Below, one piece after another: positions 1 through 44,332 of a stretch of DNA of 64,000 bases. The number at the start of each line of letters is the position of its first letter. Positions within the stretch are counted from its first letter, which is position 1. The stretch is taken from the NCBI GenBank assembly GCA_951406725.2, contig OX597815.1, forward strand, positions 121,334,001 to 121,398,000. Reading direction: 5' to 3'. The position numbers and the translations under genes are program-made. Below the pieces are notes generated by a model that saw only the letters and a program-made list of their open reading frames with translations, was not told the DNA's origin and did not search any database. Source of the DNA: Octopus vulgaris (Eukaryota).

Positions 1-501
1 AGGGAAATAAATGCTTGGTATAATTTTTTCCTTTTGTTTTTGATTTTATCTTTTTTTAAGTGAATGTATTTGTTTCCAGTTATAGTTGGCACGACTTTGT
101 TGAAGTGTCTGAATGAGACTAGAATAGTTTCATGTGTATTTGTTATTATGCACTTGTATCAATGAGAAGTGATTTAAAAAAAAAACACTGCTATGACAGT
201 TAATGTTGAGTAAACAAGAAATACCTCCCAAAGTTTTATTTAATAATTTGAGTGTGCTACCATTCCTGTTGTTGTTCTTATTTGACAAGTAAAGCTGATA
301 CATATAAAAACTATGGCTGACATAATGTTTAAAATATTACACACATGGCTGAGTGGTTAAGAAGTTCCATTTGAAATCACATGGCTTCAGGTTCAGTTCC
401 ACTACACACCACCTAAGGGAAGTGTCTTCAACTATAGCACCAGGCCAACCAATGCATTGTGACTGAAACTGATAGATGGAAATACATAGAGACCCATCAT
501 A

Positions 502-1245
502 TAGGGTGTGGTGAATAAACTGTCATCTAAATTATGCAAACATTAAAATAACAGTGATATCTCATTTTGAGTTATATTTACCAAAATTACATAAAAATAT
601 CTTGAAATACTAAAGAGTAAATTTGTTCAATAAAATCTCCATTGACTTCAACCATGACCTCCAGACGACTTTCGAATCTCATGCAATTCTTCTGGACAGT
701 CTACTTGTTTAAGTTGGTGAATGCTGCAATAATCTTTGCCTTCAGTTCATCTGTGGTGTTACAAGTTTTGTTGGTCTCTCACTGAACTGTGCCCTACACA
801 TAATAATCAAGGGGCTTGCATTCTGGGGAGTTAAGTGGCCAGATGTTAGGGATAATGGGGTCGCAGAAATTGTCTGACAGCCATGCCTGGGTTCTCCTGT
901 TTATGTGGCATGGTGCAAAGTCCTGTTGCCAGACGCAGGGCCTTCCAGCAGTCACCCTCTTGACTCAGGGCAGCACTACCTCCTCTAGACACTTGATGTA
1001 GGCCTCTATATTGAGTATGAGGCTATGTGGGAAGAGGAATGGAGGCATAACATCCAGTCCAAACACCGTGATGTTGACTGGATGTTTGATTTTTATCACT
1101 CTCAGTACATGTTCTTAGATTGCATTGTCCTCCGATTGACACCCAGACATTCTGAAATGTTCATACTGGAGCTTCCAGCGTCAATTCCAAGCAGAACAGC
1201 ATGATTAAAAATATAAAATGCCGACAATTTACCTATCGCACCCTG
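502..1245 (-). mobile_element. Internally deleted Tc1/mariner DNA transposon with a decayed transposase C-terminus
   Basis: Imperfect TIRs tagggtgtggtgaataaactgtca (502) and reverse complement cagggtgcgataggtaaattgtcg (ending 1245), flanked by TA. The minus strand near 780-840 reads WPLNSPECKPLDYYV*GTV, matching the Tc1/mariner WPPxSPDLNPLDY motif. Confidence 0.8.
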
Positions 1246-1259
1246 TATATATGTGTGTG

Positions 1260-1296
<37 letters not shown>

Positions 1297-1331
1297 AAAT
1301 ATTTGTGTGTATGTGAGAGAAAGCGTGTGTG

Positions 1332-1390
<59 letters not shown>

Positions 1391-1411
1391 CAACTGGTGG
1401 ACAGGTGTCAG

Positions 1412-1496
1412 TTAATTACAGCCGTTTCTAACGAATTTTTTAATAGATCAATGAGTACATTATATCAATATAAAAAAGCCTTTTCTTCAGATGAAT
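1412..1496 (-). ncRNA. Degenerate type I hammerhead ribozyme at the 3' end of a PLE remnant
   Basis: Minus strand: ttcat-CTGAAGA-(~55 nt stem II region)-GAAACGGCTGTA-attaa. Stem III is near-palindromic (ACGGCTGT) and stem I ttcat/attaa pairs at 4 of 5 positions. Confidence 0.6.
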
Positions 1497-1511
1497 ACAT
1501 GTATTTTGCAA

Positions 1512-2645
1512 TCAAGGACATTTAAAAAAAAATTTAATCCATGGCACATACATATTTAGTGAATCCACGACTAGCCCTTGTAGGTACATCCCCTTTAAGT
1601 GATTAGCATAAGTCGGAGCAACTTTTGTCCTCACTGCAATCCCATTGCCATTGAAGTAAAAAGAATGGTTTTCCAGAATAAATTTTAATCCTTCAGCAAT
1701 GAAAATCTTTTCAGTTCTATCTGGAATTTCGTGAGGTAATTTCTGAGGCCAGAAAGTTATTGCCTCTAGTCTATATTGGCATGGGATTGTGGTAGAGAGG
1801 TTTACCACATCAAAAGATACAATAGTGGTATCATTGTTTATCGATTTTGGGAGGTAGTTTAACAGGTCCAGGTTGTCGCTTATGAGACTTGTATGTATTT
1901 TAAAATAGGTTTCAGTAATATATCTAAAAAGTTACCGAGTCTGTGTGTTTCACAGTTCAGGCTTGCTATGATTGGTCTAAATTTAAGGTCAATGCAACAT
2001 TGTATGTTTATGCAACTTGAAGTTGGTTCTTTACATGCATTCATAACAGTTTGATTCTTTTAAGAGACTGTAGAAGTAGCTTGTCTTGCAATCAAAATGA
2101 GTTAGGTAGTCACATGCTTTGTTTGTTAAACCACCTTTTTGATGTCTGTGAATGAGTGTGTCCATTTTAATCATTATCTTTGATATTTGGTAATTATGTA
2201 CCTTTTCATTGCGGGTCATATCTTGTAATATAGATAGTATATCTCCTTGTAGTGTTCAGTATCCACAATAACTATAACACTCCCCTTATCTGCTTCCTTA
2301 ATTATAATGTCTTTATAGATTTTCAGTTCATGTATAATATCCCATTCCTTTCAACTGATATTGTGCTTGATTTAAGGGTGTGGAAGTTCTTTGTAAGTGA
2401 AGGTAGATATAAAATCGCAAAATTTATCTAAAGCTTTATTCTTACCTTTTGTAGAATTGTATTTGCTCTTGTTTCTTACAATTGGTTCGTCCCTGTTTTC
2501 TTTATCATACAATTCCTCTGTTAGGTGTAGTTTTCTGCAGAACTGTGAAATATCATTTGGTATTTCATTGAAGTTAGGGTGCTGTAGTGCTGGGATAAAT
2601 TTTAGGCCTTTTGACAGTCAATCGTATCAGCCTTCACTTGTGATG
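1512..2645 (-). mobile_element. Penelope-like element reverse transcriptase remnant (pseudogenised)
   Basis: ORFs 1512-1808 and 2031-2219 plus flanks give SFDVVNLSTTIP, FILENHSFYFNG and GIAVRTKVAPTYAN (PLE GxAMGTKxAPxYAN motif), and ADKG and RPII-like motifs upstream. Many stops and frameshifts. Confidence 0.8.
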
Positions 2646-3248
2646 TGAAACATTGTCACTTGATACTAACTCATGGATGCAGCAGGAAACTTACAAAAAT
2701 TTCTATGACCAGTCATGTGACTATCCTCTACCAATCAAACCCTATTCAAAACATATACTAATTTGAGCCTTGAACTCCCTATAAATATAAGGCAAGCTTC
2801 AAACACTAATCACAGCAAAAAAGCTGCAACATAAAGTACATCTTTCTATTTCAAATATTTGAAAATCAGTGTAAACTGTGAAACAGGTTAAATCTTTAAA
2901 TATAATAATGAAAAATATTTTAAATATTCTCTGTGCATTTTCAACTTCTATATTTCTTTTATTTCTATCCATATGGAATAAAATAACTTGAAGGCACACT
3001 GGTAAAATGTTGCTCCTCTACTTGGAAACTTTACCTGTCATTGTGGTTTTGTGACGTGAAGCAAAGCAGGCCTTACCATCCACTCAAGGAAACACATAGT
3101 AAATGATCCACAAGCACTTGAGCCAACTGAGTCCTCAACTTGTTTTCTTTGCCAAAAGGTTTGCAAGGCACCAGAAGGCCTCAAGAGACATGTGCATGTC
3201 CATAGAAAATGATTACTGCTTTATTTGTCATTCACAAAAGAATCCATC

Positions 3249-3307
<59 letters not shown>

Positions 3308-3436
3308 ATGTATGTATGTATGTATGTATGTATGTATGTATGTATGTATGTATGTATGTATGTATGTATGTATGTGTGTATGTATGTAATGTATGTATGT
3401 TGTGTGTGTCTGTGTGTGTGTATTTGCATGGGTGTG

Positions 3437-3597
3437 TAATAAATAAAGGGGGGAAATTGCACCAGCAAATGCTAAAAATAAGAGACAAAATTAAATCTGA
3501 AAGCCACAAGAACACTAACCTTTTTATGGCTTTCAGAGTTAATTTTGACTCTTATTTTTAGCAATCACTGGTGCTATTTTGCAACCTTTATTTATTA
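3437..3597. repeat. Foldback inverted repeat (~75 bp arms, short loop)
   Basis: gctaaaaataagagacaaaattaaatctgaaagccac...tggctttcagagttaattttgactcttatttttagc, extending outward to aataaataaagg / cctttatttatt. Confidence 0.8.
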
Positions 3598-4249
3598 ATT
3601 CCTTTTTGGTTTTTAATTGCTAGTGAGCCACTTATACTACAATGTGTTTAATATGCTTTAATATATTAATATATCATTGTAGTATCTTTTTGTGTTGATT
3701 ATGTTGTCTGCACCACCTGTCTTCGTCTTTTGATTTTTTGTGAATTCTTCCCCATATATATTTAATGTTGACTGTTGAAAGAAAGAGTACTTGATACCAT
3801 TGGAGAGAGTAATTATATTTCATTTTGGTCCATCCTGTCTCTTACTAGTCTGACCTTGTGCAGCCACAAGCAAAGCTCAGAGTAGCAAGAATCTGAATCA
3901 ATCAAACAGAATATTGTGTGTGTGCATGTTTTCGTGTTTGTACCTTGCCACTGCTTGACAACTGGTGTTGGTTTATTTACATTCCCATAATTTAGATTTA
4001 AAAAATAAATACTGGAGTTGGATTGTTTGACTAAAGCCTCCAAAGAAGTACCCCAACATGGCTGCAGTCCAGTGACTGAAACAAATAAAAAAACAATAAA
4101 AGACAAAAAATATACAAATTTCTGCATAGTTCATAGATTCAAACATTGAAAGAGGATTATGTACAACATGCTAGTTTCCACATAAAACATCATCATCTGG
4201 TGTATAGACTCTAATGTTTAGTTGTGGCTTCTCATCAATATTGGATTCA

Positions 4250-5704: not shown

Positions 5705-5770
5705 GTCTTGTGAGTGGATTTGGTACACAGAAACTAAAAGAAGCCTGTTGCATATATATATATATATGAG

Positions 5771-6450
5771 CATATTTGCCAGTTAAATGTGACTAACCCT
5801 TAAGGGTGGACGCTACTGTATCTTTTAGCCCCAGGAAGACACCTCCTCTACCTGGCTATTGACACACTTTCTGTGCCCTATCAGTATTTGGAAAGGGAAG
5901 TCATCCTTCCCATCTTCAAACTGACGTGATACACACAGACCTGGGTTTCTGGATATTGACCCGTCATCAGCATTTGGCAATCATCGGTTGTTGATGTAAA
6001 GTGCTTTCCCGATGCAAATACATATATCCTTTTTCCAGTGACAATGTCATGCAGCTACTGTGTATACCTCGCTCAGAGATTTATTATTGCTTGTTTACAC
6101 TTTTTCGAGATCAGTGACTTTTCATCACTAGAAGAAGGATATATGTATTTGTATCGGGAAAGCACTTCACATCAACAACCGGTGATTGTCACATGCTGGT
6201 GATTGTCAATACTCAGAAACCCGGGTTCGTATGTATCACATCAGGTTGAAGATGGGAAGGATGACTTCCCTTTCCAAATACTGCTAGGGCACAGAAAGTG
6301 TGTCAATAGCCAGTTGGAGGAGGTGTCTTCCTGGGGATACAAACTACAGTAACATCCAACCTTAGGGGTTAGCCACATGTAAGTGGCAAATATACTTCAT
6401 GATGTTGTACAGCTACTGTGTGTACCTCACTCAGAGATTTATTATTGCTT
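5771..6450 (+). mobile_element. Non-coding HHR-bearing retrozyme-like element (~360 nt unit plus 5' inverted copy)
   Basis: 5771-6040 is the reverse complement of 6126-6395. cagctactgtgt..cagagatttattattgctt recurs at ~6052 and ~6410. HHR motifs lie at 5933-5975 (-) and 6191-6232 (+). Flanked by (TA)n inside a SINE. Confidence 0.8.
5933..5975 (-). ncRNA. Minimal type I hammerhead ribozyme
   Basis: aaatg-CTGATGA-cgggtcaatatcca-GAAACCCAGGTC-tgtgt. The partner copy at 6191-6232 has the palindromic stem III ACCCGGGT but CTGGTGA in the core. Confidence 0.75.
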
Positions 6451-10465: not shown

Positions 10466-11688
10466 AATAGATGCTGCTGCATTTCAGGATAGTCATTTTT
10501 TCTTTCGCCAAAGAAACAAATGCACTATATATTTGTTCTTCACTTGTTTATTACTGTTCTTATTTTAACTCATGTTTATCGCCTGGAAATCTTTCGTCAC
10601 ACATCTGTGACCTCTTCAGCAACACTTTTCGTTTTTGTGTGTGCTCATACTCCACTTATTTCATTCTGCTCTTCTATGATGTGTATCCTTATGTGTGCAT
10701 GCATTTCTGTCTGTGTTTGTGTGTGCATGTGTGTGTGTGTGTGTGTGTGTATGCTTGTGTGTGTATCATTGTTCTTAGCAGTGTTTGTGTGTTCACCCAC
10801 AGTGTTGCCATCATAGTAGTTGTTGTTGTTATTGCCATCATTGTCACTGATGCTACTGCTGTTGCTGTTAGTCATGATATTTTTGCGGCCGTCCATAATG
10901 TCATTGTGTATGTGTTTGTGTGTGTTCACTTTGTATGTTGCTTGTATCCACGCCCTTCATATAGATATATTTATTTATTTATTTTGCCTATATTTCTTAT
11001 ATTTGTCACAGGTATGTGACAAATATATTTATCAATTTATTTATTTTTGCTTGTTTTTTATTTTTTTATTTTTTTATATTTATTTATCACTTTTTCTTAT
11101 ATATTTCACAGATATGTGCATATATGTCTATTGTGTGTGTATTATCCTGTTTGTATCTGTGTTTTATCTATAATTATTTTTCTTTTCTCTCTCTCTTCTT
11201 CTCCCTTCTATCTTTAGTCATGTGGTCTGGTGAGGTGATTGGTGCTGCTATTCCATTCATGTTTTCTATTTAGGCTCAGTCTGTCTACTGCTATGTGTGT
11301 AACTTCTGTGATCTAAGTGACATGTCAGTTCTATATAATGATAGGACAGCAACAGCACAGTGGAGTGAGGGGAAGGCCATACTGTTGCTAAGAACAATGA
11401 CACACACACAAGTATACACACATGCACACACACAAACACAGATGCAAACACATGTGCACATAAGGATACACATCATTGAGGAGCAAACGGGAGTAAGTGA
11501 AGCAAGAGCACGCATGAAAACAACAAGTGTTGCTGAAGAGATCACAGATGTGTGATGAAAGATTTCTGGGCAATGGACATGAGTTAAAATAAGAATAATA
11601 ATAGACAAGAGAAGGACAAATATATAGTGCATTTATTTATTTGACAAAAGAAAAAAACGACCATCCCAAAATACAACTGCATATATAG
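10466..11688. mobile_element. Older HHR-bearing non-coding element with ~320 bp diverged inverted arms
   Basis: ~10466-10800 is approximately the reverse complement of ~11375-11688. HHR motifs lie at 10581-10625 (-) and 11527-11570 (+). Confidence 0.75.
10581..10625 (-). ncRNA. Minimal type I hammerhead ribozyme
   Basis: gtgttg-CTGAAGA-g-GTCACA gatg TGTGAC-GAAA-GATT-TC-cag. The core is intact and stem II is a perfect 6 bp. Confidence 0.75.
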
Positions 11689-11786: not shown

Positions 11787-11834
11787 GTATATACATATAT
11801 CTATCTATATATATATAGAGATAGATACAGGCAG

Positions 11835-12330
11835 TGGTGGCCAATGGAACCACCTCAATGAAAACACAAATAGTGAGTAGTATTCTACAGAGCACTGTCT
11901 TGGGACAACTGCTTTTCATAGTGGCCCTCTCAGATATGCCCTCAACTGCCTGGATAGCCACCCTTGCTAGGTATGCAGATACTATGGAAGTCTCACAGAA
12001 AATACAGACCCCCAGTGATGTTGCACACCTGCAACAGGAGTTGAACTCAATTTACAGATGGGCTGAGGATAATAGCATGCAGTTTAATGCTGAAAAACTC
12101 CAAGCCCTCTGCTGCCAGCATCCAAAACTGACTATAAAACTTACAGGGTACACTGGTCCACAGGGGATTTCAGTCTCAGAGCCTAAATCAGTGAGGGACT
12201 TGGGTTAAACATGAGTGATGATACCTCTTTCCAAGTGCACATTACCAGGATGGCAACAAATTGTAGACAACTAGTTGGATGGATTCTGAGAACGTTCAGA
12301 ACCAGAGAGAAGGAAACCATGATGGTCCTC
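11835..12330 (+). mobile_element. CR1/L2-group LINE RT fragment
   Basis: [50 protein letters not shown]; decayed. Confidence 0.85.
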
Positions 12331-12567
12331 TGCCATTTATTGAAATTGATATTAAAGGCAAAGGTTATGCATCAGAAGATGTATATTGGTTAACTGTTTT
12401 TGAAATAATCAATCATCATTGTTAGTTTTTTTCACAATTAAAACCTGGATACTCTTTGGGGAGACATTAGTCTTTATCATACCAGTTTTCAATAAAGGAC
12501 TCGTTTTCAAAGAATAAAATGCTTATCAGTAAAGTATCAATTCATGCTCCTTTTGCCATTGCTTTAA

Positions 12568-24279: not shown

Positions 24280-24810
24280 CAAAAGCATAGTAACCAGCAT
24301 ATGAAAGGGCTGGGAAAAGTTCAATCAGTTACTGCAGCTGTTGGCAATAAAGGTCTTTTCTCTCAGAGAGAAAGGCAGATTGTATGATACTTGTGTTAGA
24401 ATGGTAATGAGACATGGTAGTGAGACATGGGCCTTGAATACAGAGGGCAAGAAAAGACTTGAGAGAAATGAAACTAGCATGATCCATTGGAAGTGCAATG
24501 TAAGTGCATGGACATCATAGGATAAGTGCACAAAGAGCAAAGTTGGACATAAGAAGCATCAGATGTGGTGTCCAAGAGAGACAATGGCACTGGTATGATC
24601 ATGTGATGTGTATGGATGAGGACAGCTGTGTGAAGAAGTGTCACCCCCTAACAGTGGAGGGAATCTGTGAAAGAGGTAGACCCAGGAAGACATGGGATGA
24701 AGTGATGAAGCACAACCTTTAAACATTGGGCATCACAGAGGTAATGACAAGTGACTGAGACCTTTGGAGATATGCTGTGCTTGAGAGGACCCAGAAAGCC
24801 AAGTGAAATT
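24280..24810 (+). mobile_element. RTE-group LINE 3' fragment
   Basis: RLYDTCVR..HGSETWAL..RLERNETSMI..RQWHWYDHVMCMDEDSCVKKC..GRPRKTW, followed by the family C tail. Confidence 0.85.
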
Positions 24811-25544: not shown

Positions 25545-26588
25545 TACATTTATTATCATCTGTTCTATAGGGTCTTACTAATTATTTTGCAGGAAATCGA
25601 ATATATCTTGTTACTATCTTTTAGTGTCCAAATTAGTTTGCTAAGGCTAGTAGTATTCATTTTGTTCCTATGTCTAAACAAATTTGAATGACTGGCAATT
25701 TTTTGCTTAATATAACATGAGCTAGCTCCTATATAGAAGTACTCCCTATTCTCTGAGAAAACCTTATAGCTGTATATGATATTTTTATACCTACAATTAG
25801 AATTAAGCAGACAGACCCTGTTTTTTGCACAATCACATTTGATAGTTATTACTTTCATTAATAGCTTCTGCTTCAGCTTCACTAGAAATGATTTCTAAAT
25901 TCTCCTGTATATATTCTAAGCTATTACTCTTTCCCATATAGACAACATTCTGAGTTCTGTGCTTTTTAGGATTCACATCTTCCACTTCCTGGCTAATGCA
26001 AGAGTTTGCTCGGGTAGCTTCTGTTTTATTGGTTGTCAAAGCATAGTTCCTCTCCTCATACCTAGTTAGGTTACTTATGGCTTGTTTGTCAATGTTGACA
26101 TTGTTGCTATTTATTAATCTATAATTTGTTCTGATTACTTTTGTTGTTATTGTTTATATTGAAACTGTTTAATCTACTAGTGTTGTGTGCGGCTATAATT
26201 TGTACTAGATTTTTGGTATTAGAAAAGGCTAGTCAAATTCTAGGTTTATTAAATATTCTATAGTATTTACTGTCTTTTAGAAAATGTTTAGCCAATACCA
26301 AATAGAACAATTTTGGTATATTGGAAATTATTTGTTTTCCAAAGAGAATTATATACCACTCAATATTGCTAGAGATATCTATGTTATTGAGGTAGGTATT
26401 GCTATTTCTACCTAAACTTTTTGTATAAGTGGTTTTTATTTCAGCATTGGGTTTGTTTGCTATTATATTTGCCATGATATTTGTCAGTTATTTGTATAGT
26501 ACTATTGGCAGAGCTTATGTATCAGTTAGCTCCCCTATCTGAATAGGACTACTTGGTAGATCCATTCTTATCTAAGTCACTTAGCACT

Positions 26589-26621
<33 letters not shown>

Positions 26622-27215
26622 GTTTAATGTCCGCTTTCCATGCTAGCATGGGTTGGACGATATGACTGAGGTCTGGTGAACCAGATGGCTGCACCAGACT
26701 CCAATCTGATCTGGCAGAGTTTCTACAGCTGGATGCCCTTCCTAACACCAACCACTCCGAGAGTGTAATGTGTGCTTTTATGTGCCACTGGCACGAGGGC
26801 CAGTCAGGCGGTACTGGTAGCGGCCATGCTCAAATGGTGCTTTATTTGGCACAAATTCATGTAAATTTGTACTCTGCTTTTTGGTTCAAGGTACTCTATT
26901 GTTGTATTTTAATTGCACAGACTTTCTGTCTTTAACTCTTCCCACTGTCCATTCTTGGTGGTTAGTGGTGTTCTTCATGTTTATGCATTCTATTTTGATT
27001 ATTGTCAGAATGACACATTCCACTATGTTTATCATTTCTATTATTACTATTGTTAGAGAATTTAAATTTTTCTCTATATTCCACCTTCTCTAATGCTAAA
27101 TTATAAAAGTCCTCATTTAGTTCAAATACTTTCTCGTTCACTGAAGGGTAAGTAATGCAGATTGATGAATTTTCTATTATAGTCAGGTTATACATTTTGG
27201 GTGTTCTATTTTCCA
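25545..27215 (-). mobile_element. Older PLE remnant related to the 35-44 kb element, interrupted by a family C repeat (~26590-26845)
   Basis: CDCAKNRVC (CxCx5C), NIIYSYKV..FYIGASS..KQKIASH..TTSLSKLIWTLK. SVNEKVFELNEDFYNLALEKVEY parallels SSNEEIFNKHCDRYNAALLKAGY. Confidence 0.8.
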
Positions 27216-28235
27216 TGATGGCATGAGTTGGACAATCTGACCAGAGTTTGCAAGAGAAGAGCTGCACCAGATTCCAATCTGATTTGGCTTCTAGGTTCTT
27301 TTGTGTGTGTGTGTATGTGTGTGTGTGTGTGTCTGTGTGTGTCTGTGTGTGTGTGTGTGTGTGTAAAGGGAAATCCCAATCAATAAATCCCCCCATGTCA
27401 CTCTCTCCCCACACCATATTATCCACAGCAGCCACCTACCCCCATCCCAATTCCAATTTTTTCTCTCTGTTAACCAGAACCTCTTTATCCATTAAAATTG
27501 ATTTCCACAGTCTCATACATTATACCTGTTTTATCTCTCTACTCCATCCCTGAAGCCCACTCATAATGTTTCTTTTCTCTCTCTCTCTCTCTCTCCCCTC
27601 TCTCTTCCCCCTCTCTCTTTCTCTCTCTCTCTCTCACTCACTCTCCCTCTCTTCACCCTGTCAATGGTATCTATACTGCAAATATTCTTCTAGCTTCTCC
27701 AACCCTTTGTACCCCATCTCAATCAGTACAGATGTTTTCTACCTCCATTTCCTACTTCCTCTATCTCCTTCCCCATTCACTCTTGTAAGCCCTCATTCCT
27801 TCCACCCACTACTACACCTTCTACCAGAGGTGCCACGAGAACATCCCATCATCACTGTTTATCTCCTTGGAGATCACTAAAATTCATTCTCACTCTCTCC
27901 TAAATGTTAGTAGCCATATAACACTTCTACAAGAAGCTCCTCCCTACTCTATTACTTCCCCTATACATTAACCCCCATGTAACATAGAGAAGTAACATCC
28001 CCTCTCCTTGGGTTTGTTGACTTATGAGTGCATCATGACCTCAATAGTGTCAGTGGCATGAAACAAAGTACCCAGTCCATACTGTCATTTTGTTGGTGTT
28101 AGGAAGGGCATCCAGCTGTAGAAACCATACCAAAGCAAACACTGGAGTACAATGCAGTTCTTGACTTACTGGGTCCTTGTCAAACTGTGCAACCCATGTC
28201 AGTATGGAAGATGGATATTAAATGATGATGGTGAT

Positions 28236-28276: not shown

Positions 28277-28430
28277 GGTGGTTGTCTACTCCTTATGCAG
28301 AGTTTGACCACCTCCTGTACCTACACCTTAGAACCATCATGGCATCTGATGTGGCTTTTTAAACCAGACAAAGTTTTGAAAAGACACTCACATAGATTGC
28401 ATATCCAAGTTGGACCACCAAGAGCTGTGT
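28275..28430 (-). mobile_element. RTE-type LINE extreme 3' end with C2H2-like motif
   Basis: Minus strand WICNLCECLFKTLSGLKSHIRCH followed by a short UTR. Confidence 0.6.
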
Positions 28431-28496
28431 GTATGTATGCAGTGTATGTGATTGTGCATGTGTGTATGCGAGTATATATGTGTGTGTGCATATATA

Positions 28497-29495
28497 TACC
28501 TGTTGTTGATTTGGGGCCCTAATCTGTCTATGAGAATAGCCTCCTTTATTCTTAAATTTCTTTCTTTGGCCTCAATTGTGACTGTTATGCTTTTGTCAGT
28601 GTTCTGGCATCTGTCAAGATGTTTTCTGAAGGAGGAGGCTCTCATGTTCAGGTGTTCTTTGATGCAAATGTGTAACGGCCTTGTTGTGTTACCCACATAG
28701 AGCTTGTTGCATTTGTTACATTGTATTCTATACACAACATTTATCCATTGGCGTAAGTCTGCATCACGAATGGGATAGTTTGCTATTGTGCATTGATTGC
28801 TGTCCCTAACCTGTTTCCTTACGAGGTGTCTTCTCAGAGAAGTGCCGGAGTGGGCTAGTTGTATGTCTAGTCCTTTCCTTCTTATGGCTCTTCGGATGGC
28901 TGTAGTTATCCTCTCGCTAAAATGGAGTATTTCAAAGAAGTATGCATTGCTGGGTTTTTTGTGCATTTGGCATGTTGTTCATTTTGGGTACTTAAGCCGA
29001 TTTATAATGGCTATAGGGTACCCATTGGTTTTTAATATTTCTAGGAAGTATATAGTGTGGGCCACCTTATCCTCTGTCCTGCTGCATTTGCTCTGGATGC
29101 GTGCAAGTTCATTTCTGGCATATCCTAATTTGGCATCAAGTGGAAGTGCTAAACTGTAGTGGACAAATATATCTCTACTGGCTGCTTTCCTGTAGAACTC
29201 AGTATGGATTTCTCCTTCTTCCATTATTTTCAGTTGGAAGTCAAGTAGTGATAGTGATCCAGTGTTTTCAGGATGTTCTATAGTGAACTTTATGTTCATG
29301 TCCATGTTGTTGAACATCGTGAATATTCTGTCAGCCTCTTCACGGGAAGGATGTGAGTATGAGGATGTCATCTACGTACCTGGTGAATAAAGCGCATGAG
29401 CGGCAGATGTTGAGTGCTCGACGTTCCTGATGGTTCATACAGGTGATGGCTAGTAGGCCCGAGAGATTGGATCCCATGGGGAGACCTGTTGTCCA
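28497..29495 (-). mobile_element. PLE fragment (Penelope/Poseidon-like): RT C-terminal half plus GIY-YIG
   Basis: GLPMGSNLSGLLA..FTRYVDDI, IKFTIEHPENTGSLSLLD..FYRK, VVYRIQCNKCNKLYVGNTTRPL..IKEH..KEAILI. Frameshifted. Confidence 0.9.
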
Positions 29496-29871: not shown

Positions 29872-30560
29872 TGTGCTAAGAAGGCTGAGGGTGTCTTGGC
29901 ATCACTCACCAAGTCCTTTGTGAGCCTCTCTCTGGCTATCTATCTACAGCTTTATATAGCTATGGTGTGACCTCACCTGGAATTTACATCACCAGTCTGG
30001 AACCCCTATCTTGCCCAGGATATTAATCATCTGGAAGCCGTTCATTGGCATGCAACTAAGAGAATACCCTCCATCAGGCATTTGCCATATTCTGAATGCC
30101 TTACTTCTCTGGGCATGGATACATTAAAACTCCGACATCTGGCAGCAGACTTGGCAGACACCCATAAAATTATTAACCATCTTACAAACAATAACTTTGA
30201 ACACCTTTTCAAACTCACCTGTCTAACACCCGTGGACATGTTTACAAGGTCAAAAAACAGCACAGCTCCTATGACTTTCAGAAACATTTTTTCATGCCAA
30301 GAGTTGCTGAAGCATGGAACAAACTGCCAGCATCAGTTGTTAGTTGTCGGAGCACTGCATCCTTCAAAACTTCCATGCTTCCTGAGATTCGCCAACACTA
30401 CACCTGATTTTCTACCCTCCATACACACGCAAGCATGTATCTGACTCATACACTGTTCACTTTCCAGACATTTGTACATTAATGCATATGCTTTATACGC
30501 ACTTTTGACAAGTAATGGTGCACCTGAGCACTGTATATAATAATTTCATTATCATTATTA
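29872..30560 (+). mobile_element. CR1 LINE 3' end
   Basis: PHLEFTSPVWNPYLAQDINHLEAV..ATKRIP..YSECLTSLGMDTLKLRHL..DL..THKII, then a 3' UTR and (ATT)n tail. Confidence 0.85.
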
Positions 30561-33960: not shown

Positions 33961-35119
33961 GGTATTTTGTCAGCTAAGTCCTTAACTATACTTATGTTTT
34001 CAGATTTATTGCTGCAAGTACCATACTGTAAGATATCAGCTTCTTGTGGATCTGCAACAGAAATTTAATTTCTGGATTATTTTTCTGTAACCAATGCCTT
34101 TAGGATATATATAAACACTACTAACCTCTTTTTGTTGAGGTGAAGCGATTCCTATTTTGAAGACAACAGGACTAATAATCCATTGGCAGACACTTCTGAT
34201 TTTTGCCTTTTTTTATAAAAATATTTTGCTTTAAAAAATACTTTTCAGTTTTTGTATGAAAAAAAAATTTTTACAAAATAATTTTATATTTCCTTCACAA
34301 AAACTTTTTCTTTTACCAAAATATTTTTTTACCAAAAATTTTTATTCTTTACAGAAATATTCTTTTACACAATTTCTAGTTTATGAAAACATTTTTTTCA
34401 TAAAAATATATATTTTTATGAAAATGCTTCTTTTTATGAAAATATTTTTTTACCCCAAGCAGATGAATCTTTCACCTTTTGCTGAAGATACTACTGATTT
34501 TAAGAAGTCTTTCATTTAACTAATAATTTTCAAGAGAGGTGTACTGTTGTTATTACTGTTATTATATCATTTTCATTTATTTTTAAATGTCATATTTCTA
34601 CATACACATTATTTGACAGTTCATACCTCATACGTTTCCCACCACAAAATGTCCAAGACAATCAGCATGTGCTTTATAAATAGGAGGCCAGAGTTACTGA
34701 CAATTGGTGCTTCAGGTGCTGCAGTATCCAATAAAATTTACTTGAAATATCTCTTAGAAAATTACTTCCAAGAGTTATGAGTATTTTCTGAAGTAAGGAT
34801 GTATAGCAATGTTGTATCAAATAACATCAGTCAGGAAATGTGTAGCAAGGCTTGACCATACACATAAACAAACTATCAGTCAGCTGCATACCAAACAGGA
34901 TATCCCTAAAGCTTACATGCAGTAAATATAACACTATGCATTTATAAAATTTACATAACATAGTGAAGTAAATAAACACAATAAGGTTTGAAACGTATGA
35001 ATATATATAGAATCATCATCATCGTTTAACGTCCGTTTTCCATGCTGGCATGGGTTGGACGTTTTGAATGAGGTCTGGAGAGCCAGCAGCTACTCCAGAT
35101 TCCACATATATATATATAT

Positions 35120-35258
35120 ATAAGCTTGCTTCCCAACCACATAGTTCCAGGTTCGGTCTCACTGCATGGCACCTTGGGCAAGTGTCTTCCACTATAGCCT
35201 CGGCCGACCAAAGCCTTGTGAGTGGATTTGGTAAATGGAAACTGAAAGAAGCTCATCG
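35120..35258 (+). mobile_element. tRNA-derived SINE family A, 5' half; its 3' half resumes at ~44125-44325 after the PLE (other copies at ~345, 21200, 23050, 44762, 45418, 48348, 57148, 58615)
   Basis: gcttcccaaccacatagttccaggttc...ccttgggcaagtgtcttc...gtgagtggatttggta..gaaagaagc, then (TA)n. Intact copies continue tgtttgtcccaccaccatcgcttgacaacc. Confidence 0.85.
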
Positions 35259-35274
35259 TATATATATATATATT

Positions 35275-35325
<51 letters not shown>

Positions 35326-35337
35326 CATATATATATA

Positions 35338-35391
<54 letters not shown>

Positions 35392-35757
35392 AATGAGATA
35401 GGGGTTGAAAATTCAACCCACCATGGGATAATATATATCCAATATACTGCTAGATAGGTACCCAACAAAATTAATACATAGATGTTAAAAATTGTCAAGC
35501 AATCAGTTCATCTATTGTATTAAATGGGTAAAGGTAATAATATTACCGTAAATTAATACTACAAAATTAGAGAATGGAGAAACATACTTAAATCAGTAAA
35601 ACATCAACTATCCGATGATACTCAATCCATACTTTAATACACCATTACATATGAGTAAAGGCAATATATAAAATGAAATGAGATATACAGTAATAGTAAA
35701 AGTAAAAAGATAAAGAGATATAAGTAAAAAATTTCAAATATAATATGCAAATAAATC

Positions 35758-35873
35758 AAAACTGACAGCTGTTTCGGCAGTGAGGACAGTCATACCTCAT
35801 TTAACCTATAAGCCATAAAGGCAGGTATAAATGAGGCATTAACAAAGATGCCCCACGGCCTCTTCAGAGAATT
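35758..35873 (-). ncRNA. Type I hammerhead ribozyme (inverted-arm copy)
   Basis: Reverse complement of 43731-43846. Confidence 0.8.
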
Positions 35874-36208
35874 AAATTAAATTTGTTATAATAGTGAAAA
35901 ATATTATATAATCATATACATATAAATATAAAAATATAAAAATGTAAAATATAAAAACTTATACATCATAATGCTACACTTGTATAATATAATACACATT
36001 TGTACAAAAAGGAAGGTAAACAGAACAAAATAAAACAAAATATATAACAGTGTATATATAATATTAATAAGTACCGATATCATACATATTTAGCTAATAG
36101 TTTTTTTTATAAAAAAAAGGGCTAACACATATGGAGATGAAAAATAATAATTAAATCCGTGGTACAGTTCATAAAATTCTAAAGCTATAAAAGTTAATAA
36201 AAATTACT

Positions 36209-36265
<57 letters not shown>

Positions 36266-37977
36266 TAAAAAATAATAAAAATAGATACAGTTAAGTTATC
36301 ACCAAGTCCATCCTTTCAAGATCGAAATAACTATGAGTTAAGAAATGCTGACCACTAGGTAAAGAAAATTTAGATTAATTCGATTGGCTATTGGTTTGAA
36401 ATTTAAATCACAAAAGAAAATTATACGGTTGGTTAGTCAGGGAACGCCAATATTCACACACGCATCTACAGATCAATCGCACATACACACATAGTTATAT
36501 GTATATACATACACTTATACATATACATAATCATAAGCAACAACTAACACTTAGATAAACAAAAGGGAAGCAACTATGCTAACATTTAAGTCCTTCAAAA
36601 TTATAACTGAGCCTCAATAACAAAAAAAGAACCATCCATGCATTCTATAAAATATTTAATTAAGATATAAATGTATTTTTAAATATCAGTATGTTACTAA
36701 TTCAGATAATTATTTCATGGGTAACTTAAAATTTATAACACCGGTTTGTTGCAGAGTAAACATACGGTTGTTAGGTTTATCGTAAGTTTGTTATGATTTA
36801 AAGTACGCTAAATTATAAAATATAAAATATAAAATATATTAATTTAGATATTATAAATAAGTCACTTATTAACTTAATAAATATAGTGCCAAATATACCA
36901 GTTTAGGCAATAAAAATAGAGGGGAAGTATTAATGTAAACGCTTATGAGAACATCACAGAAATTTTAAATAAATTTTATATTATAAAGACTTAAGATGAA
37001 AAGAGATAAAATAAATAAAAAGGAATAAATACGAAGGAATAAATACGGTTATACACATAATTATAAGTACAAACTAGTATATATGTATTCATATATTATT
37101 AAAATTAAATAAAAATAAATGATAGATATGTATGTATAAAACTACACCAGTATAAGTAAATAAGTAAAGAATAAATAGGTAACAAATTAAATGACTTGAT
37201 ATGTATGTAAACATCCACACTTAAATAGGCAAATAAATAAATAAATAGAAGACTAGATGCAAATATTGATAATATTACAATAAAATGGGAAATAAATAAA
37301 AATAAATAAAGTGAATATATATATTTTATATTGTTGAAAGTAAATATGTATGGAAGGATAGTTTAAAGTACAGATCCAGAGGACTATAGATATAAACTAA
37401 ATATATGAGGCTGGTAATAATTATAAAGCAAAATGCATGTAAATGAGAAAATGAAAAAAATGAAAAAGGTTTATCAGTGAATAGCATAAGATACAAATTA
37501 AGGTGAGTACAAAAAGACCAAATATATAATAAAAACCTTCCAAATCAGCACATACAAAAAACCTATAATCTCAACCTAAACCCACCAAACTCACAAAAGG
37601 CTCTCATATATTACATATTATACAATATCATTACATTATCCAGAGCTAGGTATCTAACCAAGATATACATATATACTATGCAATATACTATGCAATATTG
37701 GAAAACTTCAAAAATCACACATTACAAGGCAAATACCAAAATGAATATGTTATTTTATGTCATATTGCATTTCTCTTAAAAAACAAACAAAAACCCACAT
37801 ACAAAAACCAAGAAACCAATAATACTAGACACATCCATTAGTTATTATACAAATGTAGCTATAAAAATTATAAAATTATGAAATTTATAAATTGTATACT
37901 TTAGAATTATAGAAGACCACAGGTATATTTAGTTAAAGAAGGGAATTAAAAAATTATAATAGTGGAAGTGCTAAGTT

Positions 37978-39022
37978 CTATTTGAATCTAGAAAAGGTGA
38001 ACGGTAGCCTATGAATACAAAAGAAGTTTTTCTCATTAATGTTGTTAATAATTTGCCGACCCGCTTTAATAATGAAGAAAATTTCATTAATACATAGAGA
38101 GCATTTTTTATTTTTTCCATTATACACAGGTGCTGAAGTTAGTATTTTCCAGTTTAATCTAAAATCTAAGTTCTTACTTTTAAGTTCCCAAATATATGCA
38201 CTTAGCCCTGTAGAGTACATTCTATTTTTATTCCTAAAAGTATATCTATGATAATTCCATCTTTGTTTTATGCTATTCATAGTTGCCCCGATATACACCC
38301 TACTACTCAATTGTGTATCTACAGTGCATTGGTAAACTACCTCCTTCCTGAGGCATTGATTACCAAATACACATTTATTTTTATTTCTGCAATTACAAAG
38401 ATTAACAGAATGAGGAAATCTAAGATTGGACACCACCCCTATACTACTATTCACATTATAAGTGTTACAATTGTTATCATCATCCAAACCCAAAATCAAC
38501 GAATGAGTTAATTCCACATTATCGGCTATATTCCTATCACTAGTACTAGTATTGGTAGTAGTGGTATGATCTATTACATTTATATTATCTCTGACAGGTA
38601 TGGTGCACTCATTATTAGTAAGGAGGTTGCTCCCATTTGTTCCAAGAAAATTTCTATTCCTATTATTAATGAAGAGGGGCAAGTTTTCCTGGTCTAAATT
38701 CAATTTTCTATCCTTATAGAAGTGATCCAGTTTCTTGTTATTAAAAGAGGAGATGATGGTGGCTAGATTATGAGTAATGCTATATCCCACTCTAACAGTA
38801 CCGTTGTTAATTAAAGGACTAAATTTATTCCTATCCTTACCAAAATGCCTAAAAATAATATTATGCAAAGCTCTCACTATGTTTGTTTTAATCTGCATTG
38901 CATACGGGATAATCAACCAAAGAGTATCCTTATCAGAATTAGGATTGCCTATAGAATTAATGTTATTTGTAAAAATCCTATTCGTAGACCAACTCATAGG
39001 ATTACTATTCTTACCACTGTCA
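37978..39022 (-). pseudogene. Inverted duplicate of the PLE linker plus GIY-YIG coding segment
   Basis: Identical to the 40420-41613 protein from DSGKNSNP onward. The ORF-track N-terminus (up to 39090) is antisense of the RT start. Confidence 0.9.
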
Positions 39023-41613
39023 AAGTCTCCTCCACCAAATATACATCTAGACAATTTTGAACAAGAACTATGGGAGACTGTAAAAAACATAAAATTTAGA
39101 AATCATCCTTTAAGATATAACCCGCACAATATTAATTTTAATTAGAACTCTCAAAGGTAAGAGCGGCATTCTAACACATTCTGACAAAACTAACAACATC
39201 TACAACATTGACATTACTGCATATCATGATCTTCTACACAAGGAAATAACCAAGAAATACAAAGTAGTACCTTCTAGTACACTTAGAAAACTGAACCTGG
39301 AGATCAGAGAAATCATATTTGACTACTACCTAGAAGAAAAAACGGAACCCTACACCCCATCCAGACCGAGAATTACACTAAAGGATCATAAAGAGAATTT
39401 TCTTGGAAACACACAGGTCAGATTAATTTGCCCCACTAAATCTGACTTAGGCAGACTAAGTAAACTCATTCTAGATAAATATCTACCCACCATCCGCAAT
39501 AAAATCAAACTAAACCTTTGGAAGAATACTCAGGGTGCTTTGGATTGGTTTTCTGCCATTAAGGTCTGTGACAGTAACAACTTTAGCTATAATAGAAATA
39601 AATTTATACAATTCGATATACAGAATTATTACACTTCAATTAACCCTATTATATTAAATAAGTCCTTAATTTTTGCTAGAAAACACACTAAATTAAGTAT
39701 GGGGGAGATTAAGGTTATACTAACAGCCAGGAAAACTTTAATAGAGTTTGATAATAAACTTTGGGCTAGAAAGGACACACCCAACTTGTTCGATATCACA
39801 ATGGGATCGCCGGACTCAGCGGAGGTGACTGATCTAGTTGGGATGTATCTATTAGATAACTTTAGTAGGGAATTCCCTGAATTAAAAGGCGGATTATACA
39901 GGGATGACGCCTTATTTTGTGTTAGGAATACATCAAATAGGAGATTAGATCTTCTGAAAAAAAGAATAAACAAATTTTTTAAAAGCTTCGGCCTATCCAT
40001 TATCATTGAAAGTGAAAATTATTCTGCTAATTATTTAGATGTTAATTGTAACATTACTAATGGTTTACATGAACCCTATATTAAACCTAATTCTAACCTA
40101 ATATACATTAACCGTTCTAGTAATCACCCCCTCAAATTAAAAATGCACTAGTGCGTAGCATTAGTCAAAGAATTTCTAGTTTATCCTCAAACGAGGAAAT
40201 TTTTAACAAACACTGTGATAGATACAATGCAGCATTACTTAAGGCAGGATATAAAAGTAAGATTTGGTTTATACCTAAGGGGAACCCCCTAATGGAGGTA
40301 GAACTATCAAGAACAACACAAATAGATTTAGGATAATCAACAATATACATAAGAATAGTAAAAACAGAATATATGATAACACCTATAATAAATGTAGAAG
40401 TGACGTTAACCTTGGAAAGGTGAACGGTAGCTCAAATAGATCTAAACATACGAGTAGTAGTAGTAATATTAATAATAATATACGAATTAAAACTTATGGT
40501 AGACATGATAATGGTAAAGTTTACTTGCGCAATAACCATGGTAATATTGATATAGATAGACATAACAATGACAGTGGTAAGAATAGTAATCCTATGAGTT
40601 GGTCTACGAATAGGATTTTTACAAATAACATTAATTCTATAGGCAATCCTAATTCTGATAAGGATACTCTTTGGTTGATTATCCCGTATGCAATGCAGAT
40701 TAAAACAAACATAGTGAGAGCTTTGCATAATATTATTTTTAGGCATTTTGGTAAGGATAGGAATAAATTTAGTCCTTTAATTAACAACGGTACTGTTAGA
40801 GTGGGATATAGCATTACTCATAATCTAGCCACCATCATCTCCTCTTTTAATAACAAGAAACTGGATCACTTCTATAAGGATAGAAAATTGAATTTAGACC
40901 AGGAAAACTTGCCCCTCTTCATTAATAATAGGAATAGAAATTTTCTTGGAACAAATGGGAGCAACCTCCTTACTAATAATGAGTGCACCATACCTGTCAG
41001 AGATAATATAAATGTAATAGATCATACCACTACTACCAATACTAGTACTAGTGATAGGAATATAGCCGATAATGTGGAATTAACTCATTCGTTGATTTTG
41101 GGTTTGGATGATGATAACAATTGTAACACTTATAATGTGAATAGTAGTATAGGGGTGGTGTCCAATCTTAGATTTCCTCATTCTGTTAATCTTTGTAATT
41201 GCAGAAATAAAAATAAATGTGTATTTGGTAATCAATGCCTCAGGAAGGAGGTAGTTTACCAATGCACTGTAGATACACAATTGAGTAGTAGAGTGTATAT
41301 CGGGGCAACTATGAATAGCATAAAACAAAGATGGAATTATCATAGATATACTTTTAGGAATAAAAATAGAATGTACTCTACAGGGCTAAGTGCATATATT
41401 TGGGAACTTAAAAGTAAGAACTTAGATTTTAGATTAAACTGGAAAATACTAACTTCAGCACCTGTGTATAATGGAAAAAATAAAAAATGCTCTCTATGTA
41501 TTAATGAAATTTTCTTCATTATTAAAGCGGGTCGGCAAATTATTAACAACATTAATGAGAAAAACTTCTTTTGTATTCATAGGCTACCGTTCACCTTTTC
41601 TAGATTCAAATAG
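39023..41613 (+). CDS. PLE polyprotein (N-terminally truncated): RT, Asn-rich linker and GIY-YIG endonuclease, with three apparent frameshifts
   Basis: SDKTNNIY, RITLKDHKENF..VRLICP, FIQFDIQNYYTSI, FDITMGSPDSAEVTDLVG, GLYRDD, NYLDV, SNHP, CNCRNKNKC, VVY..VYIG..KQRWNYH, CSLCINE. Frame changes near 39130, 40130 and 40285. Confidence 0.9.
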
Positions 41614-43322
41614 AACTTAGCACTTCCACTATTATCAATTTTTTAATTCCCTTCTTTAACTAAATATACCTGTGGTCTTCTATAATTCTAAAGTATACAA
41701 TTTATAAATTTCATAATTTTATAATTTTTATAGCTACATTTGTATAATAACTAATTGGATGTGTCTAGTATTATTGGTTTCTTGGTTTTTGTATGTGGGT
41801 TTTTGTTTGCTTTTTTAAGAGAAATGCAATATGACATAAAATAACATATTCATTTTGGTATTTGCCTTGTAATGTGTGATTTTTGAAGTTTTCCAATATT
41901 GCATAGTATATTGCATAGTATATATGTATATCTTGGTTAGATACCTAGCTCTGGATAATGTAATGATATTGTATAATATGTAATATATGAGAGCCTTTTG
42001 TGAGTTTGGTGGGTTTAGGTTGAGATTATGGTTTTTTGTATGTGCTGATTTGGAAGGTTTTTATTATATATTTGGTCTTTTTGTACTCACCTTAATTTGT
42101 ATCTTATGCTATTCACTGATAAACCTTTTTCATTTTTTTCATTTTCTCATTTACATGCATTTTGCTTTATAATTATTACCAGCCTCATATATTTAGTTTA
42201 TATCTATAGTCCTCTGGATCTGTACTTTAAACTATCCTTCCATACATATTTACTTTCAACAATATAAAATATATATATTCACTTTATTTATTTTTATTTA
42301 TTTCCCATTTTATTGTAATATTATCAATATTTGCATCTAGTCTTCTATTTATTTATTTATTTGCCTATTTAAGTGTGATGTTTACATACATATCAAGTCA
42401 TCTAATTTGTTACCTATTTATTCTTTACTTATTTACTTATACTGGTGTAGTTTTATACATACATATCTATCATTTATTTTTATTTAATTTTAATAATATA
42501 TGAATACATATATACTAGTTTGTACTTATAATTATGTGTATAACCGTATTTATTCCTTCGTATTTATTCCTTTTTATTTATTTTATCTCTTTTCATCTTA
42601 AGTCTTTATAATATAAAATTTATTTAAAATTTCTGTGATGTTCTCATAAGCGTTTACATTAATACTTCCCCTTATATTTTTATTGCCTAAACTGGTATAT
42701 TTTGGCACTATATTTATTAAGTTAATAAGTGACTTATTTATAATATTTAAATTAATATATATTTTATATTTTATATTTTATAATTTAGCGTACTTAAAAT
42801 CATAACAAACTTACGATAAACCTAACAACCGTATGTTTACTCTGCAACAAACCGGTGTTATAAATTTTAAGTTACCCATGAAATAATTATCTGAATTAGT
42901 AACATACTGATATTTAAAAATATATTTATATCTTAATTAAATATTTTATAGAATGCATGGATGGTTCTTTTTTTGTTATTGAGGCTCAGTTATAATTTTG
43001 AAGGACTAAATGTTAGCATAGTTGCTTCCCTTTTGTTTATCTAAGTGCTAGTTGTTGCTTGTGATTATGTATGTGTATAAGTGTATGTATATACATATAA
43101 CTATGTGTGTATGTGCGATTGATCTGTAGATGCGTGTGTGAATATTGGCGTTCCCTGACTAACCAACCGTATAATTTTCTTTTGTGATTTAAATTTCAAA
43201 CCAATAGCCAATCGAATTAATCTAAATTTTCTTTACCTAGTGGTCAGCATTTCTTAACTCATAGTTATTTCGATCTTGAAAGGATGGACTTGGTGCTAAC
43301 TTAACTGTATCTATTTTTATTA

Positions 43323-43392
<70 letters not shown>

Positions 43393-43730
43393 AGTAATTT
43401 TTATTAACTTTTATAGCTTTAGAATTTTATGAACTGTACCACGGATTTAATTATTATTTTTTTCATCTCCATATGTGTTAGCCCTTTTTTTTTTAAAAAA
43501 AACTATTAGCTAAATATGTATAATATCGGTACTTATTAATATTAATATATACACTGTTATATATTTTGTTTTATTTTGTTCTGTTTACCTTCCTTTTTGT
43601 ACAAATGTGTATTATATTATATAAGTGTAGCATTATGATGTATAAGTTTTTATATTTTACATTTTTATATTTTTATATTTATATGTATATGATTATATAA
43701 TATTTTTCACTATTATAACAAATTTAATTT

Positions 43731-43846
43731 AATTCTCTGAAGAGGCCGTGGGGCATCTTTGTTAATGCCTCATTTATACCTGCCTTTATGGCTTATAGGT
43801 TAAATGAGGTATGACTGTCCTCACTGCCGAAACAGCTGTCAGTTTT
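43731..43846 (+). ncRNA. Type I hammerhead ribozyme with extended stem II in the PLE 3' UTR
   Basis: CTGAAGA (43737), ggccgtggggca...tgtcctcactgcc, GAAA (43829), palindromic ACAGCTGT, GUC triplet (43838-43840). Stem I is imperfect. Confidence 0.8.
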
Positions 43847-44069
43847 GATTTATTTGCATATTATATTTGAAATTTTTTACTTATATCTCTTTATCTTTTT
43901 ACTTTTACTATTACTGTATATCTCATTTCATTTTATATATTGCCTTTACTCATATGTAATGGTGTATTAAAGTATGGATTGAGTATCATCAGATAGTTGA
44001 TGTTTTACTGATTTAAGTATGTTTCTCCATTCTCTAATTTTGTATTATATATATATATATATATGTGTG

Positions 44070-44100
<31 letters not shown>

Positions 44101-44332
44101 GTATATATTTTTATGTGTGTGCTTATGTGTATCTGTTTGTCCCACCACCATCGCTTGACAACCAATGTTGGTGTGTTTATGTCCCCGTCACTTAGTGGTT
44201 CAGCAACAGAACCGATAGAATAAGTACTAGGCTTACAAAGAATAAGTCCTGGGATCGATTTGTTCAACTAAAGGCGGTGCTCCAGCATGACCACAGTCAA
44301 ATGAATGAAACAAAAGAATAAAAGAATATATG

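Follow-up and report, generated by a model that had tools for sequence, protein, structure and literature searches.

The question raised by this locus is how a giant, nearly perfect inverted repeat came to lie in the genome of Octopus vulgaris. The analysed window is a stretch of 64,000 nucleotides (contig OX597815.1 of assembly GCA_951406725.2, positions 121,334,001 to 121,398,000, forward strand), and all coordinates refer to it. The structure at 35388..44045 had been described in a first-pass annotation as a young Penelope-like element (PLE) forming a giant hairpin. The analysis indicated that it is a recent, long, 5'-truncated PLE in the standard inverted layout of such elements, atypically long, for which the hairpin is a potential structure. 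Its probable origin is one recent event, in which a long PLE of the Hydra type was inserted into the (TA)n tract of a short interspersed element (SINE) by double priming and head-to-head joining.

The inverted arrangement was analysed by self-BLAST and pairwise alignment. One long inverted match was revealed in the window, 40569-44048 against 39022-35556, with 98.995% identity over 3483 columns, and no other match in the window was longer than about 520 nt. The left arm (35556..39022, minus strand) is an inverted 5'-truncated copy consisting of linker, endonuclease and 3' region, and the right arm (40569..44048, plus strand) finishes at a short 3' end. Between them lies a unique spacer of 1546 nt (39023..40568, plus strand), which holds the 5'-truncated reverse transcriptase (RT) and thumb with the DKT motif at 39183-39191 and GLYRDD at 39891-39908. 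The annotated arms of about 3.47 kb around a 1.55-kb RT spacer were thus borne out by both methods. The annotated extra 3' tail of about 170 nt (35388..35558, minus strand) was also recovered; it is present on the left arm only and is single-copy in the window, so that the tail-bearing left arm and the right copy with its RT spacer each hold sequence that the other lacks. The arm makes up about 62% of an element unit of at least 5.6 kb, the minimum length of 5602 nt being the sum of the window parts and 408 nt found upstream in a family contig.

The arms differ by 15 substitutions and 14 indel events over 3464 aligned positions and are 99.6% alike when substitutions are counted. Ten of the 15 substitutions are transitions, three of the five transversions lie at indel or arm edges, and the coding part of the arm (1045 nt) holds a single arm-to-arm difference. 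The divergence of 0.35-0.43% corresponds to roughly 0.5-0.6 million years with the calibration quoted in PMC13282606, an age which sequence errors would inflate and gene conversion would lower.

The flanks of the element were then compared with SINE halves elsewhere in the window (12 and 11 half-matches). The 5' half of the target SINE lies at 35119..35257 and the 3' half at 44105..44330, both on the plus strand; they flank the insertion in the same orientation, in correct order and non-inverted. The left (TA)n tract (35258..35387) masks any target-site duplication, and the right tract occupies 44046..44104. At one other site (48486-48091) the two halves are directly linked by a 38-nt (TA)n, and at two further sites they are 269 and 395 nt apart. 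The flanking halves and the uninterrupted SINE at 48486-48091 confirmed that the element splits a SINE at its (TA)n.

These flanks bear on whether the inversion is an assembly or library artefact, caused by a read that folded back or by the chimeric joining of two distinct copies of the family. In favour of this, independent reads do not confirm the junction, many homopolymer indels occur between the arms and in the reading frame, and the SINE is common enough for each of two copies to sit in one. A fold-back cannot yield the tail, nor non-inverted, ordered SINE halves; the substitutions comprise 10 transitions against 2 clean transversions, and the arms share private variants. An artefact is consequently regarded as very improbable. 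A simple fold-back is excluded and two primings would be needed, because each arm holds sequence that the other lacks; a fold-back of a single cDNA is further contradicted because it predicts the tail on the longer copy, and the opposite was seen. The annotation's argument against a simple fold-back, from the split SINE and the unique spacer, therefore held.

Contigs of the same family were collected from four sequencing runs (X1, X13, X14 and X19) of four studies. In all four, contigs lead from 40568 to 39022 with a change of strand, as expected from the normal continuity of spacer and arm. Contigs extend upstream of 39022 by 408 nt in X1 and as loose ends in X14 and X19, and those of X1 follow a normal, longer element through both junction points. 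Both arms carry letters departing from the family majority at 35596, 35846 and 37169, which points to one source. One X19 contig skips 1700 nt (37252-38953) and suggests an internally deleted, possibly non-autonomous family copy elsewhere.

The similarity of the arms and the nature of the junction also bear on a two-step origin, in which the first copy became the target of a second one, landing at it or within it, or a deletion removed the middle of a longer head-to-head pair and left the asymmetric spacer. The 1-nt homology at the head-to-head junction (39022..39023), shared with the family's natural upstream sequence, would also result if a deletion had been closed by end joining; at the arm-differing positions 36058, 36588 and 38299 family contigs show both letters, which would allow two templates, and a PLE protein from the anole cuts its own pseudo-long terminal repeat (PMC11167929). 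Against this, the junction lacks a TA tract or duplication, the arms are 99.6% alike though only 116 of 653 X14 contigs match the left arm and spacer at 99% or more, and an inverted truncated 5' copy is a regular outcome of PLE insertion (PMC8557442). A two-step origin is therefore considered unlikely.

The coding content was examined in the plus-strand copy, which begins abruptly at 39023 within the N-terminal region and runs through RT, thumb, linker and GIY-YIG endonuclease to a stop at 41613. Full-length homologs covered RT, thumb, linker and endonuclease in this order in tblastn. The C-terminal frame (40279..41613, plus strand) holds two Asn-rich linkers, the endonuclease and the stop, with CxCx5C at 41194-41220 (CNCRNKNKC), GIY-YIG at 41251-41304, CxxC at 41488-41499 and CxH at 41572-41580, all on the plus strand. 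The left arm carries an open frame for linker and GIY-YIG endonuclease at 37978..39022 on the minus strand. The reading frame is broken near 39135, 40126 and 40284, all three breaks lying in the spacer. Small indels relative to the window leave the frame open at the two homopolymer breaks in family contigs of all four runs, with the frame-open indel at 40284 a minor share in X19, and the break at 39135 is open in the listed X1 and X13 contigs. An Octopus sinensis protein (XP_029653623.1), 92-100% identical to the element in three segments, reads through two of the three breaks. The breaks are either mutations of the window copy or consensus errors. RefSeq lists this Octopus sinensis copy of the PLE family under the name 'GATA zinc finger domain-containing protein 14-like'.

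A search for longer proteins gave 165 matches among 2062 candidates, and motifs were counted on the 120 listed. These are 589-824 aa long (median 703), and the best are 44-47% identical to the element, one of them from Argonauta hians. G.YRDD was found in 120/120, CxxC-E in 114/120, CxCx5C in 103/120 and DKT in 101/120. The two linkers of the element are about 110 and 100 residues longer than those of the homologs and contain 24% and 19% Asn; Asn-rich linkers also occur in some relatives, among them one from O. bimaculoides. Pfam returned no family for four element frames and three homologs and is therefore blind to this PLE clade.

The motifs gave insight into clade membership. General PLE features are present: RT followed by a C-terminal GIY-YIG endonuclease in one open reading frame (ORF), whose breaks are absent from family contigs, and 5' truncation with an inverted truncated copy at the 5' end and a tail on one end. 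DKG is replaced by DKT (HSDKTNNIY). By eye, the divergent RT4(B) DITMGSPDSAEVTDLVG and GLYRDD follow the Hydra rows of Fig. S7 in PMC8557442, and the RT is unlike the Penelope, Nematis or Neptune rows of that figure. One hallmark of the Hydra clade, the combination of divergent RT4(B) and GLYRDD with no insertion-in-fingers domain, is found in the element. The endonuclease is devoid of CCHH, having a single Cys between its GIY and YIG halves, and CSLCINE and CIH are present. The Hydra-type (TA)n target is likewise present, an X14 contig having a loose end at 35556. The region of the Hydra RWK motif lies upstream of the truncation; RW[KR] was found in 82 of the 120 listed homologs, including P0001 and P0002. 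The element of at least 5602 nt departs from the small size of Hydra elements, generally <3 kb, a descriptive rather than diagnostic trait. All five traits on which the annotation had based its Hydra assignment (DKT, GLYRDD, CxCx5C, endonuclease CxxC and (TA)n targeting) were thus present.

An RT tree of 35 rows placed the element in a five-row group (support 100/100) with the Argonauta protein and three others, among DKT-type homologs. The tree contained no published PLE reference rows and had a single outgroup with a long branch, the only usable one of three proteins found in a search of other clades, and so does not amount to the formal clade placement that had been called for. Naiad and Chlamys (N-terminal endonuclease, DKA, no canonical hammerhead) are ruled out by the C-terminal endonuclease and DKT, and Penelope/Poseidon, Neptune and Nematis (DKG, CCHH endonuclease, Y[VI]DD) by the element's motifs. 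Judged by its sequence, the element is very probably an atypical member of the Hydra clade.

Its likeness to that clade (Craig et al. 2021, PMC8557442) covers DKT, ITLKDHK, the divergent RT4, GLYRDD, CxCx5C, CxxC and CxH without CCHH, the (TA)n target, a 3' hammerhead motif with palindromic stem III, the inverted 5'-truncated copy and an octopus host. The published Hydra list includes Hydra-1_Obim (2507 bp, Octopus bimaculoides), from which the present family differs by protein and hammerhead when compared by eye, and Penelope-13_HM, which has a 966-nt inverted 5' copy (PMC8557442). The differences are in size: the element measures at least 5.6 kb compared to 1.1-3.0 kb in 27 listed Hydra families, its two linkers are about 100 aa longer, and its hammerhead stem II is 85 nt compared to <=24 nt in 26 rows as read from the list; two Selaginella PLE hammerhead motifs have longer loops (PMC8557442).

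The 3' non-coding region is AT-rich (24% GC) and 2.43 kb long (41614..44045, plus strand), and in it the hammerhead lies 2.12 kb past the stop. Of 77 related loci, the end of the endonuclease could be recognised in 66, of which 40 had a hammerhead 29-515 nt past the stop; these distances are biased by short contigs. Where 2.2 kb or more of sequence followed the stop (11 loci), the ribozyme lay within 200 nt in 9 and none was found in the other 2. The long 3' region is a family trait, as all 30 bins were covered in all four runs by 123 to 3986 contigs, and no joint skipping it, as splicing would leave, was found in X1 contigs. The 'very long' arm pointed out by the annotation is thus real in its length; it needs no new mechanism, because the element and its 3' region are themselves long. 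Recently active Penelope elements of O. vulgaris are reported to occupy 1,795,539 bp over 329 insertions (PMC13282606), about 5.5 kb each, so long young PLEs are not rare in this species.

The type I hammerhead motif is located at 43737..43840 (plus strand) in the right arm, with a CUGAAGA core, a palindromic stem III and a predicted cut after 43840; an identical motif lies at 35764..35867 (minus strand) in the left arm. Stem II spans 85 nt (43744-43828, z -6.4), compared to 10-25 nt in 40 hammerhead-bearing relatives, and stem I is irregular. The active monomer fold lies 5.2 kcal/mol above the minimum, in which the core is paired, and the stem III palindrome is predicted to allow an 8-bp dimer helix. 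This predicted folding fits the dimer- or protein-dependent PLE ribozymes of PMC4209133. Rfam gave no match in the window at gathering threshold and missed both hammerhead motifs. A narrow literature search of an incomplete collection gave no paper on this family or on a comparably long stem II.

The tail of the left arm is predicted to form five hairpins (z -4.6), and the tail and hammerhead are the only regions below z -3, in 3 of 42 sense windows. Contigs of all four runs cover the tail. The short 3' end is common to other copies, since three X14 contigs stop at 35556 and pass into TA-rich letters, whereas support for the long 3' end is slimmer, consisting of a single X1 loose end at position 35394, on the border of the searched stretch. 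No match was obtained between the tail and a profile of 82 homolog N-termini. Both 3' ends finish in a similar pyrimidine-rich word ending in TA. By eye, these words (44017-44045, and 35388-35402 on the minus strand) resemble splice acceptors; pairing of TA with the target, or an intron end that was retained, may account for them. As a separate observation, nine tandem junctions in eight Hydra-type relatives (L022, L025, L028, L033, L045, L048, L057 and L068) have the N-terminal motif of the next ORF 200-231 nt past the hammerhead core, the stop-to-core distance varying from 29 to 195 nt.

The formation of the head-to-head pair can be proposed from these features. The RT-endonuclease would nick both strands of the symmetric (TA)n, and two cDNAs would be primed on element RNA that had not been cleaved, from two internal sites separated by about 170 nt. 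The template would be uncleaved because both ends are located past the predicted cut, by 204 and 374 nt. One cDNA would start at the tail end and halt after 3.6 kb, the other would start at the short end and halt after 5.0 kb, and the truncated ends would be joined head-to-head with almost no homology. The product would be a dead-on-arrival pair facing outwards, in which a 3.5-kb stem could form only on read-through transcription or in the single-stranded state. On read-through in either direction the antisense arm would be made first, and the sole sense hammerhead would be zipped into duplex. The PLE protein of the anole, which has been modelled as a dimer, cuts and extends both strands, with two internal start sites defining the tail, and hammerhead cleavage is not needed (PMC11167929).

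The self-priming model of Arkhipova et al. (2013), in which priming on an antisense transcript would give the inverted pair in one pass, was weighed at the same junction. That model was put forward for PLE repeats in head-to-head orientation whose junctions are palindromic (PMC3846280). Here the junction is free of a palindrome or usable homology, and a single template would not leave a 1.55-kb spacer on the tail-less copy; little weight is given to this origin.

Several points weigh against one insertion with double priming and end joining. The mechanism is borrowed by analogy from a protein of the Poseidon clade, not of Hydra, and the RT tree contained no published reference sequence. No listed contig bridges 39022/39023, with 5182 further pieces outside the listing; short-read contigs are not expected to span this junction. 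The 14 indel differences and the single-base breaks in homopolymers point to a degree of consensus error in the window sequence. At about 170 nt the tail is some five times as long as known ones, and it gave no ORF-start match, unlike the anole and Adineta tails.

Comparison with known systems is in accordance with a regular insertion product. PLE insertions usually comprise an inverted 5'-truncated copy and carry a tail at one end (PMC8557442, PMC8969392, PMC2377424); the annotation had called inverted pseudo-LTRs known in PLEs, and the inverted layout proved to be typical and is already listed for the Hydra family Penelope-13_HM. Penelope of Drosophila virilis (PMC2377424, PMC3681739, PMC3136932) shares large inverted terminal repeats of variable size and differs in clade (DKG, CCHH endonuclease) and in its 34-bp tail, the tails of other PLEs being 30-40 nt compared to about 170 nt here. 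Poseidon PAc of Anolis carolinensis (PMC11167929) resembles the element in two alternative 3' ends past the hammerhead and an AT-rich target, and its two-strand cleavage and extension fit a head-to-head product; its tail is short and inside the ORF start, whereas the present tail has no detectable ORF start. Pen1-Pen4 of Adineta vaga (PMC3846280) share Asn-rich ORF insertions and a tail on one inverted repeat, and show spacers of 0.9-1.5 kb before the 3' repeat and long tandem or inverted structures. They differ in being Penelope-type with spacers that vary between copies, whereas the 3' region of the element is common to many copies.

The annotation had also proposed the element as a driver of hammerhead ribozyme families. 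This found no support in the window, where other hammerhead-like repeats share only chance similarity with the element's 3' region; the best matches were 13-27 nt and mostly simple repeats. Non-LTR (long terminal repeat) retrozymes share a type I hammerhead of PLE origin (bioRxiv 10.64898/2026.07.22.740005), a link that is general in that report; unlike them, the element has no tandem hammerhead repeat derived from it in the window.

The proposed role as a source of long double-stranded RNA (dsRNA) has published precedent, as small interfering RNAs are reported to map exactly to inverted Penelope regions in transgenic D. melanogaster (PMC3681739, PMC3136932). For the octopus locus itself this role is unsupported by read-through, and the editing signal was insignificant. 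Editing would be expected rather than surprising, because octopus hyper-editing and an edited Penelope in lizard are published (PMC5625713). X1 is a guessed RNA run; 13 of the 20 contig-bearing runs were guessed to be RNA and none of those listed is recorded as such. The T>C share of changed places was 29/89 in X1 compared to 13/65, 13/67 and 13/59 in DNA runs (Fisher p 0.07-0.19). This excess was rejected as A-to-I editing: it is not significant, the individuals differ, and most listed sites vary in DNA too. A hairpin RNA would need host read-through or an inward promoter, because both copies are 5'-truncated and face outwards. A bidirectional pseudo-LTR promoter has only been suggested for Adineta, and a Pfam search of 24 window ORFs (picked from 206 candidates of 502 ORFs) revealed no host exon.

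Other repeats of related kinds were observed in the window. An older, broken Hydra-like PLE remnant (25574-27231, minus strand; thumb, linker and endonuclease) has 27-36% protein identity to the element and a SINE inside. A non-Hydra PLE remnant (28391-29480, minus strand) with GLPMGS, RYVDD and GIY-YIG shows 62-76% identity to Octopus bimaculoides proteins, including two chimeric gene models. A decayed head-to-head inverted pair (10467-10780 and 11386-11686, 79%) with a short hammerhead-like motif per arm probably represents an old pair of inverted pseudo-LTRs from a different family. An imperfect palindrome (5751-6396, 80%) has a hammerhead-like motif at 5970 on the minus strand. Fragments resembling the RT of long interspersed elements lie at 11825-12390, 24305-24719 and 29971-30441, with a weak Pfam RVT_1 match in the first alone.

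A giant inverted PLE as a source of dsRNA is known biology at a larger size. Departures from known Hydra elements are the 2.1-kb distance from stop to hammerhead, the 85-nt stem II, the structured 170-nt tail and the two Asn-rich linkers. Families with an 85-nt stem II are probably under-counted, as their hammerheads escape Rfam and short-stem descriptors. The two start sites of this element, 170 nt apart and outside the coding region, make tests easier both of the choice of internal initiation by PLE RTs and of the still unsettled formation of head-to-head copies. A joint reading of these features is put forward tentatively, as a rather doubtful possibility. An octopod lineage of Hydra PLEs may have rebuilt its RNA end, with a structured 170-nt tail between two similar start words and a stem II grown to an 85-nt hairpin of pre-microRNA size. 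The long 3' region and ordinary double priming would then routinely give near-perfect inverted repeats of several kilobases, which, on inward or host read-through, would become major ADAR and Dicer substrates silencing the family in animals with extreme A-to-I editing. If transcribed, such hairpins would add to the long dsRNA load of the octopus.

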